DNA from: a virus
DNA: 64,000 bases
Strand: one strand, 5' to 3'
IMG/VR virus record: IMGVR_UViG_3300027749_000093
Coordinates: 8,428-72,427 of that record
Positions 8,345 through 64,000 of the stretch are shown here, piece by piece (positions within the stretch are counted from its first letter, which is position 1; each line of letters starts with the position of its first letter). The notes under the pieces are model-generated. The model was not told where the DNA came from, ran no database searches, and saw only the letters and a list, made by a program, of their open reading frames with translations. A program made the position numbers and the translations under genes.

Positions 8345-8545
8345 ATGGCAATGGAAACTTTACCTCCGCAACAAGGAAAACCTTCAATAAAATTTCATAA
8401 AGGTGGCTTACATGAGTCACTTGGAGTTGCCGCAGACAAAAAAATACCTAAAGAAAAAATTCAAGCAGCATTAGCAGGTTCATATGGCGATAAAGCCCAA
8501 AAACAAGCACAATTTGCAAAAAATGTATTAGTTGGAAGTAAGTAA
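8345..8545 (+). CDS. small basic phage protein
   Basis: KGGLHESLGV...KKIP motif typical of small conserved phage proteins. Confidence 0.6.
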   Translation: MAMETLPPQQGKPSIKFHKGGLHESLGVAADKKIPKEKIQAALAGSYGDKAQKQAQFAKNVLVGSK

Positions 8546-58453: not shown

Positions 58454-58530
58454 TGTATTAGTTTTTATTGGTTAATAGTTAGTTCCTCTAGCATACTTCG
58501 AGTATCTGCCTAAAGCCTAGAGGAAAGGTG

Positions 58531-58884
58531 TTAAAATTCTATGTCTGTGAATATATCTTTAGTATTTAAATGTAATGCTGACATTAATGGTTTTAATGAT
58601 TTTCTTAATTGATATACACCATCGTAGTCAGTGACTTCATTGTATTCTATCCAAATTCCACCCTCTGCATAATATAACTCTTCATCCTGTGCATCTTTAA
58701 TATATACTTCAAAACATCCTTTATTATAAGTGCTACCAAGAGAAGGAACAAATAATTTAACACTTAACTCTTCTGTTTTACTAATTTCTCCTTTTATGTT
58801 ATAATAAGTAATAACTCTTTTTGCAACTTTTCTACCATTTTCAATAGTAAGTTCAACTTTGCTTTTTGTTGTTGTGTTTGGCAT
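58531..58884 (-). CDS. first early gene, hypothetical protein
   Basis: 117 aa; ATG 12 nt downstream of the hammerhead. Confidence 0.65.
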   Translation of the reverse strand: MPNTTTKSKVELTIENGRKVAKRVITYYNIKGEISKTEELSVKLFVPSLGSTYNKGCFEVYIKDAQDEELYYAEGGIWIEYNEVTDYDGVYQLRKSLKPLMSALHLNTKDIFTDIEF

Positions 58885-58895
58885 TGTATTATGTT

Positions 58896-58949
58896 ATTAG
58901 TTTCGCCATTCCTTGGCTCATCGGTATAGGCAATGACCTATAGACTAAT
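58896..58949 (-). ncRNA. type III hammerhead ribozyme (C at core position 4)
   Basis: ATTAG-TC^TATAGG-tcattg-CCTATA-CCGATGA-GCCA-aggaa-TGGC-GAAA-CTAAT; all three stems pair perfectly; GUC triplet. Confidence 0.85.
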
Positions 58950-59257
58950 TGGCTATCGTGTTGCAGACTAATTATCATAGTATAGCTATGACATACATCC
59001 TGTTGTTCAACATCGGATTCCGTAGTTGTGAGGTACATCTTTTCGGTCTGACTACTCACCTGATATCTTGATTATAGCAGCTATATCAGTACTGCTTAAA
59101 TGGGAAAGGGTGCTTGTGGCTGAGCAAATAACTATTCGTGAATTTCTGATGGCTAAACCATCGTACATCCTGTTATTAGCGAGTGCATTGAAGAGGATAA
59201 GACTCTTTGTTCGCTACCACAACTTTAAAAAGAACTGCGTCAATCACATTGACAACA

Positions 59258-59288
59258 CAAATATAGTAACCTTACATGACATACCAAA
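59258..59288 (-). promoter_or_regulatory. strong Bacteroidota sigma-A early promoter
   Basis: minus strand TTTG (59288-59285) N19 TATATTTG (59265-59258), a perfect consensus match. Confidence 0.8.
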
Positions 59289-59969
59289 TATTTATTGATG
59301 TTTTTTTAAAAAAAGTATATGCTTTAACATTTCTTTCACATATACAGGTATGTAAATCGCTGAAACCCTTGCTACCATTGACTTTCATCAATTTAACACA
59401 TTTATGCAACAATGTTGCAAAACCTCAAGGTTGCCCTAACTCCGACCTTCCCTAGTAGTAACCTTACATTACATTAGATGGTCTAGAATCGCCTTCTAAA
59501 TCGTTTTACCTCCCACCTACCCATAACTACCCTAATAACACCAAATCCCCGTACAAACAGACAAACCATAAAACCACCCCAAATCACCCCTATAAAAACA
59601 CAAGGCATACAATCACCCTACTTTAAAAAGATATGGCAAGGAAGCCTACTTAGAATCGCATATATATAACCTATCGCCTATCCCATCTGTCTAAGCACCC
59701 CACCCCACCCCAAAACCAAAAGTGAAATCGAAATCTAGGCATAGCCCTATCGCCCAATTCCTAGTTCCCCTTTGGGCTGCCGCCCCCCACGTTTATTGCG
59801 TGACACCCCCAAGACACCTAGCTGTTATTTTTGTTAAATAGGATTGGGATTTTATTTTGGTATGTTTTTTTTATTTTTTACAGGGTGGTTTTGTGATTTG
59901 CGAATTGCGAATTAAAAGGTTTTTTGTGATTTATGGATTTGTTGTATCTTTAGGAATTAAAATTTGTTT

Positions 59970-60167
59970 ATGGCAATGATGATGCATGAAAGTTTACATA
60001 AAAAAATTGAGAAGGCTAAGAGTAAGCATATGATGAAGAGGGCAGATGGTTCAAGTTCTCCTCGTGGATTATGGGATAATATTCGTGCCAATAAAGGAAG
60101 TGGTAAAGAGCCAACTGCTGAAATGTTGAAACAAGAAAAAAAGATTAAGGCACAAGAAAAAATGTAA
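59970..60167 (+). CDS. small basic phage protein
   Basis: GLWDNIRANKGSGKEPT motif. Confidence 0.6.
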   Translation: MAMMMHESLHKKIEKAKSKHMMKRADGSSSPRGLWDNIRANKGSGKEPTAEMLKQEKKIKAQEKM

Positions 60168-60170
60168 TTT

Positions 60171-60455
60171 ATGTCGGAAGCTTGGGAAAGAAAAGAAGGA
60201 AAAAATCCTTCAGGTGGCTTAAACCAAAAAGGTCGTGATTCATATAATCATTCTCATGGAGGTCATTTAAAAGCACCTGTTAAAAGCGGAGTTAATCCTC
60301 GTAGAGTTTCTTTTGCAGCTAGATTTTCAGGTATGGTAGGTGCTATGAAAAAACCTAATGGTGAACCAACAAGGAAAGCATTAGCTTTAAAAGCATGGGG
60401 ATTCGGAAGTATTGTAGCTGCTCGTAACTTTGCAAATGCACATAAAAAATCTTAA
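60171..60455 (+). CDS. small basic phage protein (DUF6321-like)
   Basis: AWERKEGKNPSGGLNQKGR...LKAPV...RRVSFAARFSGM. Confidence 0.7.
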   Translation: MSEAWERKEGKNPSGGLNQKGRDSYNHSHGGHLKAPVKSGVNPRRVSFAARFSGMVGAMKKPNGEPTRKALALKAWGFGSIVAARNFANAHKKS

Positions 60456-60475
60456 AATATTAAAAAAAAATAATT

Positions 60476-60799
60476 ATGGGAATGTTAATGGATAACGAAG
60501 CAGATGAAACTTTACAACAAAAGATTGAGAAAGTTAAGGCGAAAAAAACTATGGTTAAGACTGAAACAGGTAAGACTTCGACTCCTGAAAAAGCGGCTAG
60601 TGATAAACGTGACTTTGAAATGGGTATGCAGAAGCAATGGGAGTCTAGGGGTAAAGAAGATTTAAAAAATAGAATTGACAAGGCTAAAAAACTTCAAATG
60701 ATTGATAGGGCATCTAAGAAAACTAAAATGCTTATGGATGCAAAAGCCAAAGGCACAGCGATGCTTGACGAAGACGAAGAAGATAGCGATATGGCATAG
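60476..60799 (+). CDS. Lys/Met-rich hypothetical protein
   Basis: 107-aa charged ORF. Confidence 0.55.
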   Translation: MGMLMDNEADETLQQKIEKVKAKKTMVKTETGKTSTPEKAASDKRDFEMGMQKQWESRGKEDLKNRIDKAKKLQMIDRASKKTKMLMDAKAKGTAMLDEDEEDSDMA

Positions 60800-60978
60800 T
60801 CATAATGTTTTGTTAAAATAGTATTTAACTTTTTTTATTGTAATTTATTTTAGGTCTATTTGCCTAAATGATTATTATGAAAAAAGTTATTTGCGTTTTT
60901 AGGATAATGTATTTTATCCTTTGCTGCATTGTATTATCACCATTAATAATTTATTCACTAACTAAAAAAAAATAAACC

Positions 60979-61179
60979 ATGGACAGTTTTTTTAATTTAA
61001 CATCAGAAATAGAAAAAGAGTTAGCAATTGTTGCAGACAGAGTAGATACAATGTGTGTCTTTTGGGATGCACTTGTTTCAGAAAATGAAATAGTTTATAT
61101 GGATGATAAGCTAAGACTAGAGTCTAAAAAAATTTACGAATCTATTATTAAATTTCAAAAATTATTAGAATGCATATAG
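60979..61179 (+). CDS. hypothetical protein
   Basis: ORF overlapping the next gene. Confidence 0.55.
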   Translation: MDSFFNLTSEIEKELAIVADRVDTMCVFWDALVSENEIVYMDDKLRLESKKIYESIIKFQKLLECI

Positions 61180-61832
61180 ATGAACAATTAAATTATGGAA
61201 ATGATATATTTAAATCGATATCAGATGCTGTTTCTTTAGAAGATTATAAACTTGCTAACTCAATCATTCAAAATACACAACCACCTAAAGAATGGGTAAA
61301 AGAATATAAGTCTTTAATAAAAGAAGGCGATACCTATAAGACTATTAAGATTGAATTGCTTGAAGCTATTGCCAAAAAAATATATGGTTATTGGGGGATT
61401 GACAAAATAGACAAACCAATAATTATATCTGACAAATCAGGTAAGGTTTGTATCACAGTAAAAGCATCATTAATAATCAGACATTTGGATGGCATCAATC
61501 ATATCTTCTACGAAGGACTTGCTTCAGAAGTAGCATCAAGCATAGCACTTATGCCATTGGTTACAGGAAAGGTTATAGCATCTTGTAAGAAGGCTTGCTT
61601 TAAACAGATAGGAGACTTATTTGGTAGGTCGTTATCTAGGGGATTTGATGAAGGTGAATTGCCTGAAATGCAGATAGAAAACGAATCACCTGATAGAAAG
61701 TTATCAAGACTAATATCATTGATTAGCGATTGCCAAACAGAAGATGAATTAAAGTCTTATAAGATAATTGCTGCAACTAATGAACTAACTAAGAAACAAT
61801 ACGAATTAAAACTAAAACAAATTAAACCATGA
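61170..61832 (+). CDS. putative single-strand annealing protein (Rad52/Sak-like)
   Basis: paired with exonuclease; ...KKACFKQIGDLFGRSL; C-terminal ISDCQTEDELK helix. Confidence 0.55.
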   Translation: MHIDEQLNYGNDIFKSISDAVSLEDYKLANSIIQNTQPPKEWVKEYKSLIKEGDTYKTIKIELLEAIAKKIYGYWGIDKIDKPIIISDKSGKVCITVKASLIIRHLDGINHIFYEGLASEVASSIALMPLVTGKVIASCKKACFKQIGDLFGRSLSRGFDEGELPEMQIENESPDRKLSRLISLISDCQTEDELKSYKIIAATNELTKKQYELKLKQIKP

Positions 61833-62572
61833 CAAATTGGAACGGAATCAAAATCAGATGTTCTGCATTAGGTTCTTTGCTTACTCAGCCACAATCTAAG
61901 GCTGCAAAGGATGCCGGTGAACTTAGTGAAACAACTAAATCATACCTAGTATCTGTCTACATTGAACATAAGTATGGCAGGAAAAAAGATATACAATCTA
62001 AGTATTTAGAGAAAGGAAAGTTAGCTGAAGAAGATTCAATAGACTTGCTAAGTAAATACGAGAAAGAATTTTTACAGAAGAACGAAGATTGGCTACAAAA
62101 CGATTACATTAGCGGCACTCCTGATATTTTTAGAGGTAAAACAATCCATACAGCAACAGAGATTATAGACATTAAAACATCTTGGAATCTAGAGACTTTC
62201 CTATCTAATGTAGCCAAGCCCTTAAATCCGCATTATGTTGCCCAATTAAACGGCTATATGGCTTTATCGGGTGCTAATACTGCTTGGATATGCTACTGCC
62301 TCACATCAGCCCCTAATAGCCTCGTAGAAGACGAAAAAAGAAAGTTATTATATAGGATGAATGTTGTATCAGACGAATCTCCTGAATATAAATTAGCTTC
62401 ATTAGAATTAGATAATGACATGATATTTGAAGACATTCCAATTAATGAAAGAATATTAAAGTTTCGAGTTGATAGGGATGATGAAATGATTGAAAACATA
62501 TACCAAAAAATAAGAAAAGCTAGAGAGTTTTTAGCTGATTTTGAACATAGACATATGGATTTTAACAGGTAA
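61829..62572 (+). CDS. YqaJ/lambda-exonuclease-like PD-(D/E)XK nuclease
   Basis: IRCSALG; KGKLAEE; SGTPDI...IIDIKTSW; QLNGYM. Confidence 0.8.
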   Translation: MTNWNGIKIRCSALGSLLTQPQSKAAKDAGELSETTKSYLVSVYIEHKYGRKKDIQSKYLEKGKLAEEDSIDLLSKYEKEFLQKNEDWLQNDYISGTPDIFRGKTIHTATEIIDIKTSWNLETFLSNVAKPLNPHYVAQLNGYMALSGANTAWICYCLTSAPNSLVEDEKRKLLYRMNVVSDESPEYKLASLELDNDMIFEDIPINERILKFRVDRDDEMIENIYQKIRKAREFLADFEHRHMDFNR

Positions 62573-62597
62573 TTAACAATTTAATTTAAAAATTATT

Positions 62598-62628
62598 AAA
62601 TCTCACCCTAAAAAGTGGGATTTTTTTA
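62598..62628 (+). terminator. intrinsic terminator
   Basis: AAATCTCAC-CCTAAAAA-GTGGGATTT followed by T-tract. Confidence 0.7.
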
Positions 62629-62668
62629 TTATAAGTATTTTAAGTATATTTGAGTAAAATAAGTATAT

Positions 62669-62818
62669 ATGCCACAGGTAAGCGGAACAGTTACACAATT
62701 AATAAAGGATGAAATAAAACTAATCCAAGAAAAAGAAAAAAGAAGTGAATCACAAGTAATTTCAATATTACTAGAAAGAGCAATTAAAGAACGAAATAGA
62801 AAAAAAATAAAATGTTAA
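62669..62818 (+). CDS. ribbon-helix-helix regulator (49 aa, not in ORF track)
   Basis: MPQVSGTVTQLIKDEIKLIQEKEKRSESQVISILLERAIKERN; upstream TATATTTG promoter element. Confidence 0.6.
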   Translation: MPQVSGTVTQLIKDEIKLIQEKEKRSESQVISILLERAIKERNRKKIKC

Positions 62819-63267
62819 AAAAGGTAGTATTTAATATTAATCCACAAACAAATATAAGAACTACTCAAAATGATAGAATATTCTTTAGAATACCAAGACA
62901 ACATTTGCGACCATCAGGATTAAAAAGATTACTTAGAATAGAAAGATATAATAATTATAAACTTTCTCTTTCTGCAATAGCTAAATCTAAAAAGTTTACA
63001 CCACCTGAACAAGGAGGACATTTAATATTTTATATAAATGTTCCTAAATCATGGAGAAAAAAGAAAAAAGAATTAATGCATTTAAGATTACATCAATCAA
63101 GACCTGATTGGGATAATTTAGCTAAAGGTTTTTTTGATGCCCTAATGGTAGAAGATAAAGAAATAGCAGATGTAAGAGTAACTAAAAAATGGGTTAATGC
63201 AGAAAATGGTTGGATAGAGTTTATTTTTAATATACCTGATTTTTCTAGTAAAGACAATCTAATATGA
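62812..63267 (+). CDS. rusA: RusA-like Holliday junction resolvase
   Basis: PKSW...HQSRPDWDNLAKGFFDAL...DKEIAD. Confidence 0.8.
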   Translation: MLKKVVFNINPQTNIRTTQNDRIFFRIPRQHLRPSGLKRLLRIERYNNYKLSLSAIAKSKKFTPPEQGGHLIFYINVPKSWRKKKKELMHLRLHQSRPDWDNLAKGFFDALMVEDKEIADVRVTKKWVNAENGWIEFIFNIPDFSSKDNLI

Positions 63268-63848
63268 GTAATATTTATATACTGCATCCTAAAAATATGC
63301 AATGGCAAAGGAATATGGGAGGTATATATAAGATAACATTTGGTAATAAATATTATATAGGTAAAACAGAATTACTTAATAGAAGATTGTTTGAACATGA
63401 ATTATGTATAAAGAAATCATTTGAATATTATAAACATGGGTTAAAATATAGTGAATATGGAATGTATAAAAATTTAATTAAATATTTAATTGATAATCCA
63501 AAGATAAAAATTGGTTATATAGAATTAATCCAACCATGTTCAAACACTAAACAAATGGATTATTATGAAAGTGAAATATTATTTAATTTAAGGTATAATG
63601 ATGATTGTTTAAATGTAGGTAAATATAATATCCGTATGAATAGAAAGATTGGTGCAGAATTGCCTTCTTGCAAGATTTATGAACAATATAGGTGGTTTTA
63701 TAATCCTAAGTTAAATGTTGAGATATTTGAATTAGATGATATTACATTGTCAGGTACTCCTAAAAAGATTAATTCTAAGGTGAGTATGCTTAATGAGAAA
63801 AGAGGTATACTACAACAGTTTATTGATAAATACGATAGATTGTATTGA
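63264..63848 (+). CDS. GIY-YIG endonuclease
   Basis: GGIYKITFGNKYYIGKT...RRLFEH...E...CLN. Confidence 0.75.
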   Translation: MSNIYILHPKNMQWQRNMGGIYKITFGNKYYIGKTELLNRRLFEHELCIKKSFEYYKHGLKYSEYGMYKNLIKYLIDNPKIKIGYIELIQPCSNTKQMDYYESEILFNLRYNDDCLNVGKYNIRMNRKIGAELPSCKIYEQYRWFYNPKLNVEIFELDDITLSGTPKKINSKVSMLNEKRGILQQFIDKYDRLY

Positions 63849-64000
63849 TAATTGCAACGATGTTGCATTCTGTGAGTATTATATACGCATACAATTATTT
63901 TAAATCGTATTTTTGGCTACGCTTAATAAAATACGATTTAAAATAATTGTATGCGTATATAATACTCACAGAATGCAACATCGTTGCAATTATCAATACA
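63841..64000. repeat. perfect inverted repeat, arms of at least 73 bp with 14-nt spacer
   Basis: 63841-63913 is the exact reverse complement of 63928-64000; spacer TGGCTACGCTTAAT; may continue past window. Confidence 0.95.

Follow-up and report, generated by a model that had tools for sequence, protein, structure and literature searches.

In the ribosomal RNA (rRNA) operons (rrn) of Escherichia coli, the elements boxB, boxA and boxC are located just past the promoter, and boxA is described as necessary and sufficient for the antitermination complex (PMC10250234); the gamma-proteobacterial boxA consensus is given as GYTCTTTAANA (PMC5725501). The association between hammerhead and twister ribozymes is also known, and is presented in PMC6765202 as unexplained and possibly tied to the processing of polycistronic mRNA near phage genes, the function of the bacterial and phage ribozymes of these classes being called largely elusive there. 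Features of both kinds appear to meet in a 313-nucleotide (nt) leader on the minus strand of a viral DNA stretch of 64,000 nt (positions 8,428 to 72,427 of the IMG/VR record IMGVR_UViG_3300027749_000093; this whole stretch is ‘the window' below), which makes up the larger part of the 72,427-base record. With moderate confidence, the leader as a whole is interpreted here as an untranslated early-operon leader with a host-type boxA mimic at its start, a ribozyme-cut end and a motif-bearing body. Full-text literature searches turned up no description, for Bacteroidota phages, of leaders with a boxA or with a ribozyme at their end.

The record is 66% complete by the CheckV estimate, with ends classed as inverted terminal repeats, and includes a portal gene. 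Nearly all genes are directed rightward, with a block of ~12 small genes running leftward from 58884 to 54378; the leader lies between the head of this block and the promoter of the block, which is taken to be the early operon. Near-identical DNA is found in freshwater and lake metagenomes. Two strain-level relatives, the metagenome contigs L055 and L036, come from a two-motif pattern scan of metagenomes that yielded 48 loci; only these two are homologous by blastn, and the other 46 were treated as chance matches and dropped. The more distant relatives (L001, L004, L005 and so on) belong to 27 loci fetched via a DUF932 protein (57-75% identity) that is encoded 2.3 kb downstream. L002 and L003, both counted within the 27, are a single 15,484-base viral contig in two orientations, which matches at the same position in both and seems to be an inverted duplication. 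The distant phages have no blastn similarity to the leader of the window, the INPHARED phages gave no blastn match to the region, no relatives were found via the 117-amino acid (aa) first gene, and exact-pattern scans of viral contigs for the leader found none; an exonuclease-based search produced only relatives of 36-38% and was not used.

The 5' module and host rRNA leaders

The original prediction placed the start of the leader at a promoter, and such a promoter is indeed found: the Bacteroidota-type consensus TTTG-N19-TATATTTG is present at 59288-59258 (Table 1), where it aligns with the rrn promoters of Chitinophagales genomes, and it is unchanged in L055, with one spacer change in L036. 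What that prediction missed is the similarity of the sequence that follows. Past the promoter, the order is a hairpin, GCA, GUUCUUU and UUAAAGUUGUGGUAGCGAACA, so that the 5' hairpin and AGUUGUGG around the boxA-like GUUCUUU mirror the host rrn leaders. A hairpin and then G[CU]UCUUU follow the early promoter in the window, L036 and L055 and, once per locus, in L001, L004, L005 and L074; the same module is also present in L066, L009 and L060, and L061 has the variant GUUCAUUGACA. At least six related phage lineages thus have the module at the head of the early operon. The hairpins stand at the same place with other sequences (GGGG/CCCC in L001, L004 and L005, GCGG/CCGC in L074, GGCAG/CUGCC in L060), as they also do in the host rrn leaders. 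In the consensus fold of two sequences, the boxA-like element is unpaired, and RNAalifold predicts a long-range pairing of AGUUGUGG with UCACAACU (59031-59024), which shows no covariation in these two sequences.

Table 1. Features of the leader region (window coordinates)
Feature	Position	Strand	Remarks
Bacteroidota-type promoter	59258..59288	-	TTTG 59288-59285, 19 nt, TATATTTG 59265-59258; regular-expression match; promoter function predicted
Leader	58943..59255	-	predicted start +/- 4 nt; 3' end is the predicted hammerhead cut
5' hairpin GUCAAU-GUG-AUUGAC	59239..59253	-	boxB position of rrn leaders
boxA-like element GUUCUUUUUAAAG	59223..59235	-	core GUUCUUU; starts 22 nt after the -7 element
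GU-rich element AGUUGUGG	59217..59224	-	boxC position
Motif copy 1, AAUAACAGGAUGUA	59164..59177	-	hairpin GAUGG/CCAUC behind it, 59162-59148; no change in L036 or L055; AUG scores -10.1
Hairpin CUGAUAU...AUAUCAG	59060..59089	-	arms located in the sequence
Variant motif AAAAGAUGUA	59034..59043	-	base 6 nt before AUG is G in the window, A in L036
Motif copy 2, AACAACAGGAUGUA	58994..59007	-	hairpin GUCAUAG/CUAUGAU behind it, 58992-58974; no change in L036 or L055
Type III hammerhead-like ribozyme	58896..58949	-	predicted cut between 58943 and 58942; three-way fold
First gene after the ribozyme	58531..58884	-	117 aa; no family assigned; start context +9.3

The host side of this comparison consists of 80 Bacteroidota-type 16S loci fetched with a primer-like pattern, 67 of which have at least 330 nt upstream. 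Among the 67, the core G[CT]TCTTT is present in 33, and 56 match GTTCTTTGAAA with two mismatches or fewer (9 exactly, 29 with one mismatch and 18 with two); these matches lie mostly 75-250 nt before 16S, and the few far-upstream or non-Bacteroidota rows may be chance. The sequences of the window, L074, L004 and L005 align with four rrn leaders of the Chitinophagales/Sediminibacterium type through the -33 and -7 elements, the hairpin and boxA. These host leaders run TAcTTTTG, hairpin, ~18 nt, GTTCTTTGAAAGTTTGGAAGCAACA, compared with TATATTTG, hairpin, 3 nt, GTTCTTTttAAAGTTgtGGtAGCgAACA in the window, and the GU-rich element is AAAGTTgtGGtAGCgAACA in the window versus AAAGTTTGGAAGCAACA in Chitinophagales rrn. 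By this alignment, nucleotides ~3-40 of the leader are closest to the Chitinophagales/Sediminibacterium rrn leaders. The core GUUCUUU matches the gamma-proteobacterial boxA at 7 of 7 positions, and the match over the full consensus is 9 of 11; L074, with GCTCTTTGAAAA, fits the Bacteroidota form better than the window does.

When both strands of the 72-kb genome are counted, a relaxed boxA-like pattern has 47 matches, roughly one in every 3 kb. The boxA-like motif was not found at the two other promoter-consensus matches of this genome that lie 20-22 nt before an ATG, nor in L002, where the first open reading frame (ORF) begins ~35 nt after the promoter. Given the rrn-like layout, the 5' quarter of the leader is best explained, by analogy, as a putative cis-acting antitermination signal copied from host rRNA operons, rather than as part of an RNA sponge of the kind that the original prediction had suggested.

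Ribozymes at the 3' end

A self-cleaving ribozyme at the 3' end was likewise foreseen, and close relatives carry another hammerhead or a twister at the same point. In the window, the candidate hammerhead consists of a 5-bp stem III (AUUAG/CUAAU), GUC before the cut, a 7-bp stem I and a 4-bp stem II followed by GAAA, and the minimum free energy (MFE) fold of 58951-58894 is the three-way hammerhead junction (z = -1.81). Its core, CCGAUGA, has C where the consensus has U4, a conserved position of the hammerhead core; the same variant occurs in L074. In L055, the same leader and stem III are combined with different but complementary stems I and II and a canonical core, which scores 43.6 bits (E 2e-7) with Hammerhead_3 (RF00008), below the gathering score of 48.5. 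At the same junction, L036 carries a twister-P1 (43.4 bits, E 1.8e-7; gathering score 67.2), in which the U-A cleavage step, placed as in PMC6154101, is 5 nt past the end of homology. The homology of a contig from the DNA run X9 stops exactly at 58942 and continues as the L055 hammerhead variant. Because the canonical hammerhead of L055 and X9 and the twister-P1 of L036 sit at this junction, the junction in the window is accepted as a ribozyme site as well.

Among the distant relatives, the ORF-less leader of L061 ends with a twister-P1 (54.8 bits), and those of L005 and L074 end with type III hammerheads identified by direct parsing only. In L001, L002 and L004, the slot is occupied by an ORF of 75-81 aa, and a type I hammerhead then overlaps the stop codon of this ORF; no ribozyme was found in six further related loci. 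The MAFFT alignment of the hammerheads (A3) misplaces one stem I strand in two of its three rows. Overall, the class of the ribozyme at the 3' end of the leader appears to be interchangeable between strains.

Several observations on the surroundings of the junction can be added. The cleavage-site strand of the hammerhead, AAUUAGUCU (58942-58950), is duplicated 23 nt upstream at 58965-58973, and the upstream copy is kept in L036, which has the twister; the duplicate could have been left behind when ribozymes were exchanged, or could offer a second possibility for pairing. In the 5' untranslated regions of L004 (2860-2920) and L001 (690-750), the stretch GGUUAA...GUCUUAACC matches the type I hammerhead further downstream in stem I and in the context of the cleavage site but lacks the core, and looks like a decayed ribozyme copy. 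Behind the ribozyme, L055 and L036 have other genes, and a contig of the DNA run X6 joins 58476 to 58890, a variant without the 117-aa first gene; to judge from these arrangements, the first gene behaves as an exchangeable cassette.

The leader body and its competing explanations

The leader shows no differences in contigs of three DNA runs from different studies (X6, X9 and X11), while the flanks differ. X6 record 7 covers 58942-59472 and differs only at 59353, 59382 and 59390; X9 record 13 covers 58942-59580, with differences only from 59474 onward; X11 record 1 covers 59002-59349 (uncovered parts of the compared stretch were given no weight for the X9, X11 and X16 contigs). For comparison, the downstream gene region of X6 has 25 differing positions and 5 gaps. 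The leader of L055 is identical to that of the window, and that of L036 is ~97% identical, with ~10 changes, nine of them between 59114 and 59046, i.e. a change rate of 3% in the leader versus 0.5% in the upstream block. The strain-invariant block extends from ~59470 to 58943, crosses the promoter and includes ~215 nt upstream of the start. The only evidence at the RNA level, a 183-nt contig from one lake metatranscriptome, covers 59046-59228 of the 1301 nt compared, at a depth of 3.1, and could derive from DNA.

The repeated motif reported earlier is real, being above chance as an 11-mer and recurring in a generalized form in relatives. The 64-kb window has exactly two copies of AACAGGATGTA, both of them within the leader, and the repeat extends to a 14-mer with 13 of 14 positions matching and no extension beyond 14 nt. 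When the 313 nt are shuffled with dinucleotides preserved, 23 of 2000 shuffles contain an exact direct repeat of at least 11 nt; for the exact 11-12-nt repeats of L005 (CTACCGGAGCGG) and L061 (TGGAAATGCACT), the corresponding frequency is 8 of 2000 in each case, and no such repeats were found in L074 or in L001, L002 and L004, the leaders that carry an ORF. Comparison of the leaders afterwards showed, post hoc, that they have the core GGA(A)0-2UG in common, in many cases with (U/C)A behind it. With each leader taken from boxA to the ribozyme or the first gene, the core occurs 14 times in seven ORF-less leaders versus 2.86 expected, and the extended form GGA(A)0-2UG(U/C)A 9 times versus 0.43, neither count being reached in any of 2000 shuffles; L005, L009, L060 and L061 are partly homologous in the leader, which leaves about three independent lineages for these counts. 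The first copy stands 32-37 nt after boxA in L009, L060, L061 and L074 and 65 nt after it in the window; L066, L001 and L004 have none. GGA as such is not enriched (30 versus 24.5 expected, a count reached by 87 of 1000 shuffles), with three GGA in the leader of the window, and the motif copies do not stand out as unpaired (0.44 and 0.53 versus a leader mean of 0.48). The motifs of the window, L005 and L061 have no identity or complementarity beyond chance to the 80 Bacteroidota rRNA-operon loci, and the GGA..UG motif, at 1.1 and 0.2 per kb, does not characterize the rrn leaders of hosts. A role as a restriction-site decoy was considered and dropped, GGATG not being avoided in the genome (61 and 38 observed versus 75.5 and 46.2 expected). 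The GGAUGUA-type sites are read here as putative binding sites for a factor, acting in cis or in trans.

The original prediction had also described the leader as an unusually structured RNA. All seven of its arm pairs and the three motif copies are located where it had placed them, but the folding as a whole is at chance level. The leader has an MFE of -62.8 kcal/mol, compared with -65.7 +/- 4.5 for dinucleotide shuffles (z = +0.64), 71 of 100 of which fold at least as well. Local stems of at least 5, 6 and 7 pairs number 38, 17 and 7, respectively, versus 36.6, 13.6 and 5.1 in shuffles, and these counts are reached by 208, 135 and 142 of 500 shuffles. The Rfam search that had been proposed gave no match inside the leader (58943-59255) with the covariance models of Rfam 15, across the window and 14 loci, at gathering and E-value thresholds. 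In L036, the arms of the hairpin CUGAUAU/AUAUCAG become CUGAUU(U)...(U)AAUCAG, with pair 6 changed from A-U to U-A and pair 7 lost; this swap at pair 6 is the only compensatory-looking change in the leader, and with two distinct leader sequences RNAalifold finds covariation in none of 75 pairs.

The lack of excess folding energy would fit an explanation under which the body past the boxA module is functionless filler, a decayed gene or a spacer, with the repeat as a duplication leftover; the lack of blastn similarity among leaders of different lineages and the faster change of the leader than of the upstream block in L036 point the same way. This explanation is nevertheless improbable: leaders that are not homologous again contain short exact repeats and the GGA..UG core, the repeat does not go beyond 14 nt, which argues against a decayed duplication, and the leader is free of differences in three runs from different studies in which the flanks differ.

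That the leader encodes small peptides, with the motif as a shared start region, is very unlikely. The candidate peptides would start at 59168 (38 aa), at the ATG at 59038 inside the 59043-59034 motif (49 aa) and at 58998 (7 aa), and this possibility draws on the AUG-UAY inside every motif copy and on CUAAUAACA, which stands before both motif copy 1 and the start region of the first gene. The start contexts tell otherwise: with a matrix built from 46 plus-strand ORFs of at least 100 aa (A-rich, with G avoided at -1 and -4), scores of -10.1, -9.1 and -9.8 are obtained for the three motif AUGs, under all 46 reference starts (+5.5 +/- 4.3) and under 86-90% of the ATGs of the genome, compared with +9.3 for the start of the first gene at 58884. 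Moreover, the 38-aa ORF is frameshifted in L036 by a 1-nt deletion, and the 49-aa frame crosses the ribozyme, so that its stop codon would be lost on cleavage in all three variants. The leader ORFs and an antisense 76-aa ORF, which is broken in L036, have no tblastn relatives in the 27 related loci. As stated in the original prediction, there is no sense ORF of 60 aa or more, the longest being those of 56 aa (58889-59059) and 38 aa (59052-59168). The poor AUG contexts, the frameshift, the frame that crosses the ribozyme and the lack of relatives of the leader ORFs jointly lead to the conclusion that the leader is non-coding, as had been claimed; a gene-like start context, a frame kept in relatives and homologues, the marks of a small protein, were not found in it.

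The explanation advanced by the original prediction is that of a stable, trans-acting RNA of ~310 nt, released by the ribozyme, in which the GGAUGUA-type sites titrate an RNA-binding factor or a small RNA (a sponge, a decoy or an anti-defence RNA) and boxA only ensures synthesis. This is possible but unlikely. It is consistent with the exact 11-12-nt repeats in three of the four ORF-less leaders first examined versus none of three ORF-bearing ones, with the excess of the GGA(A)0-2UG core and of its extended form in the seven ORF-less leaders, with the lack of the motif in the ORF-bearing leaders L001 and L004, with the swap of two ribozyme classes at the same end and with the RNA-library contig, which covers only 59046-59228; in addition, the slot holds a gene of 75-81 aa in relatives and so behaves like a cargo position. 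Against it, the motif pattern is post hoc and comes from about three independent lineages, the copies have no greater predicted exposure than the remainder of the leader, and type III hammerhead and twister-P1 ribozymes would remain on the mRNA, leaving the released leader with an unstructured 3' tail. The RNA contig, at its depth of 3.1, could come from DNA.

No partner of such an RNA was found either, identity or complementarity to rRNA-operon DNA included. ACAGGAUGU resembles the CsrA-site consensus from systematic evolution of ligands by exponential enrichment. The caution of the original prediction about CsrA is well founded: CsrA (PF02599) is missing from the phage record and from all five freshwater Bacteroidota genomes, and is present in only one of 151 genomes of the order of a Sediminibacterium genome, the likely host order. 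Across the GTDB phylum of that genome, CsrA scores over the cut-off in 27 of 201 sampled genomes, so that a lack of CsrA holds for no more than a part of this phylum.

Finally, the repeats might act on the DNA, as operators, roadblocks or origin-type repeats in a regulatory hub together with the invariant ~215 nt upstream. In favor of this improbable alternative are the invariant block that crosses the promoter, the 19-nt repeats and palindrome of the promoter region and the proximity of G-rich repeats and of the inner end of a 4,495-nt inverted repeat, all of which are described below. However, the motif is no palindrome, and its sites belong to the transcribed region, 65-235 nt in, where several lineages have them at much the same spacing from boxA; ORF-bearing leaders were found to lack the motif, and no DNA-binding protein family was found among the ten small genes.

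The promoter region has features of its own. A 19-nt direct repeat, ATGT(C/A)ATGTAAGGTTACTA, is located at 59264-59282, in the promoter spacer, and at 59456-59474, 192 bp upstream, with a near-palindrome at 59402-59422 between the two copies; all are invariant in L055 and L036 except for one spacer base, and they have the look of operators at which a regulator could control the early promoter. Beyond them, minus-strand G-rich repeats (59480-59780) differ strongly between strains and reach a contig depth in X6 several-fold above the flanks, as if common to many phages in the sample; a similar G-rich stretch is present upstream of the early promoter in L002. The first 4,495 bases of the record are a perfect reverse-complement copy of 59506-64000 of the window, the inner boundary being in the G-rich repeats, and the left copy is followed by a promoter-consensus match with a 22-nt leader. 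This inverted copy is either a real inverted terminal repeat or a fold-back assembly.

Proposed pathway and known systems

Under the favored interpretation of the leader as a boxA-bearing, ribozyme-cut transcript, host RNA polymerase would start at the Bacteroidota-type promoter, and the first ~40 nt of the RNA would copy the start of an rRNA-operon transcript, with a hairpin, a single-stranded boxA-like GUUCUUU(UU)AAAG and a GU-rich element. If it works like the leaders of rrn and lambda nut, boxA would bring in NusB-S10 and the other Nus factors, and the polymerase would then resist Rho-dependent termination across ~300 untranslated nt and the small genes, the boxA-like element protecting the long untranslated transcript from Rho. 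The ~260-nt body that follows is lineage-specific and non-coding, with two or three GGAUGUA-type sites for a putative factor. At the 3' end, the self-cleaving ribozyme would separate the leader from the mRNA, the body of the ribozyme staying on the 5' end of the mRNA and the released leader ending in ...GCCAAUUAGUC with a 2',3'-cyclic phosphate.

Several points weigh against this interpretation. The boxA-like GTTCTTTTTAAAG of the window departs from the host-phylum form GTTCTTTGAAA at positions 8-9, with TT for the G at position 8; both Nus binding and antitermination are deduced by analogy. An RNA cut 300 nt downstream might work against antitermination if boxA must stay tethered, and antitermination leaves the role of the body and its motifs unexplained. 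On the side of the ribozyme, Rfam gives the hammerhead of the window no match at the gathering threshold or at E <= 10, the C at U4 leaves its cleavage a prediction, and the hammerheads of L005, L074 and L001 are not reported by Rfam at E <= 0.01. With just two distinct leader sequences, no covariation test is possible, and the extension of the invariant block upstream of the start makes the conservation not specific to RNA.

If confirmed, the interpretation would imply that phages of Bacteroidota hijack the host rRNA antitermination machinery via a boxA mimic. The swap of two ribozyme classes at the junction of the leader and the first gene would suggest ‘cut the leader off the mRNA' as a directly testable function, and a short GGA..UG motif would recur in otherwise unrelated leaders, with a ligand that was not found in these hosts. 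The two sides can also be joined, tentatively and with rather low probability, in a ‘pseudo-pre-rRNA', a non-coding RNA of ~310 nt that would be made first by means of a borrowed rRNA antitermination signal, be released by interchangeable ribozymes and capture an RNA-binding factor with its GGA(A)UG(U/C)A sites. If true, this would add a new class to the early effector RNAs of phages and give phage ribozymes a first clear job.

Among the known systems, the rrn antitermination leaders (NusB, S10, NusA, NusG, SuhB) share with this locus the order of promoter, hairpin, single-stranded G(C/U)UCUUU and GU-rich element (order as given in PMC10250234), a long untranslated transcript that follows and a leader that is later cut from the product. 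Unlike them, the phage leader precedes protein-coding genes, and its removal would fall to a self-cleaving ribozyme, whereas in rrn RNase III cuts at a leader-trailer helix; the phage boxA has UU where the host form has G, and Nus binding is here predicted from the sequence. The lambda nut sites (boxA and boxB, N-dependent) are similar in that a phage early transcript carries boxA near its 5' end, which in lambda serves to let the host polymerase resist termination (as described in PMC10250234 and PMC2800207). In contrast to nut, the order here is rrn-like, with the hairpin before boxA, no N-like protein was identified, the host phylum is Bacteroidota and a ribozyme follows the leader.

The CsrB/RsmZ sponges resemble the leader in their repeated GGA-containing sites. 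They differ from it in that the leader has three GGA in 313 nt, without enrichment, and its sites are 5' of hairpins, not in loops; neither the many loop GGA sites nor the CsrA that characterize such sponges were found in this system. The gene neighborhoods shared by hammerhead and twister ribozymes are similar to the locus in that two unrelated ribozyme classes occur in one genetic context. The present case differs in that one class takes the place of the other at a single junction, downstream of a leader that is 97-100% identical; this junction has the untranslated boxA leader on one side and the first gene on the other.

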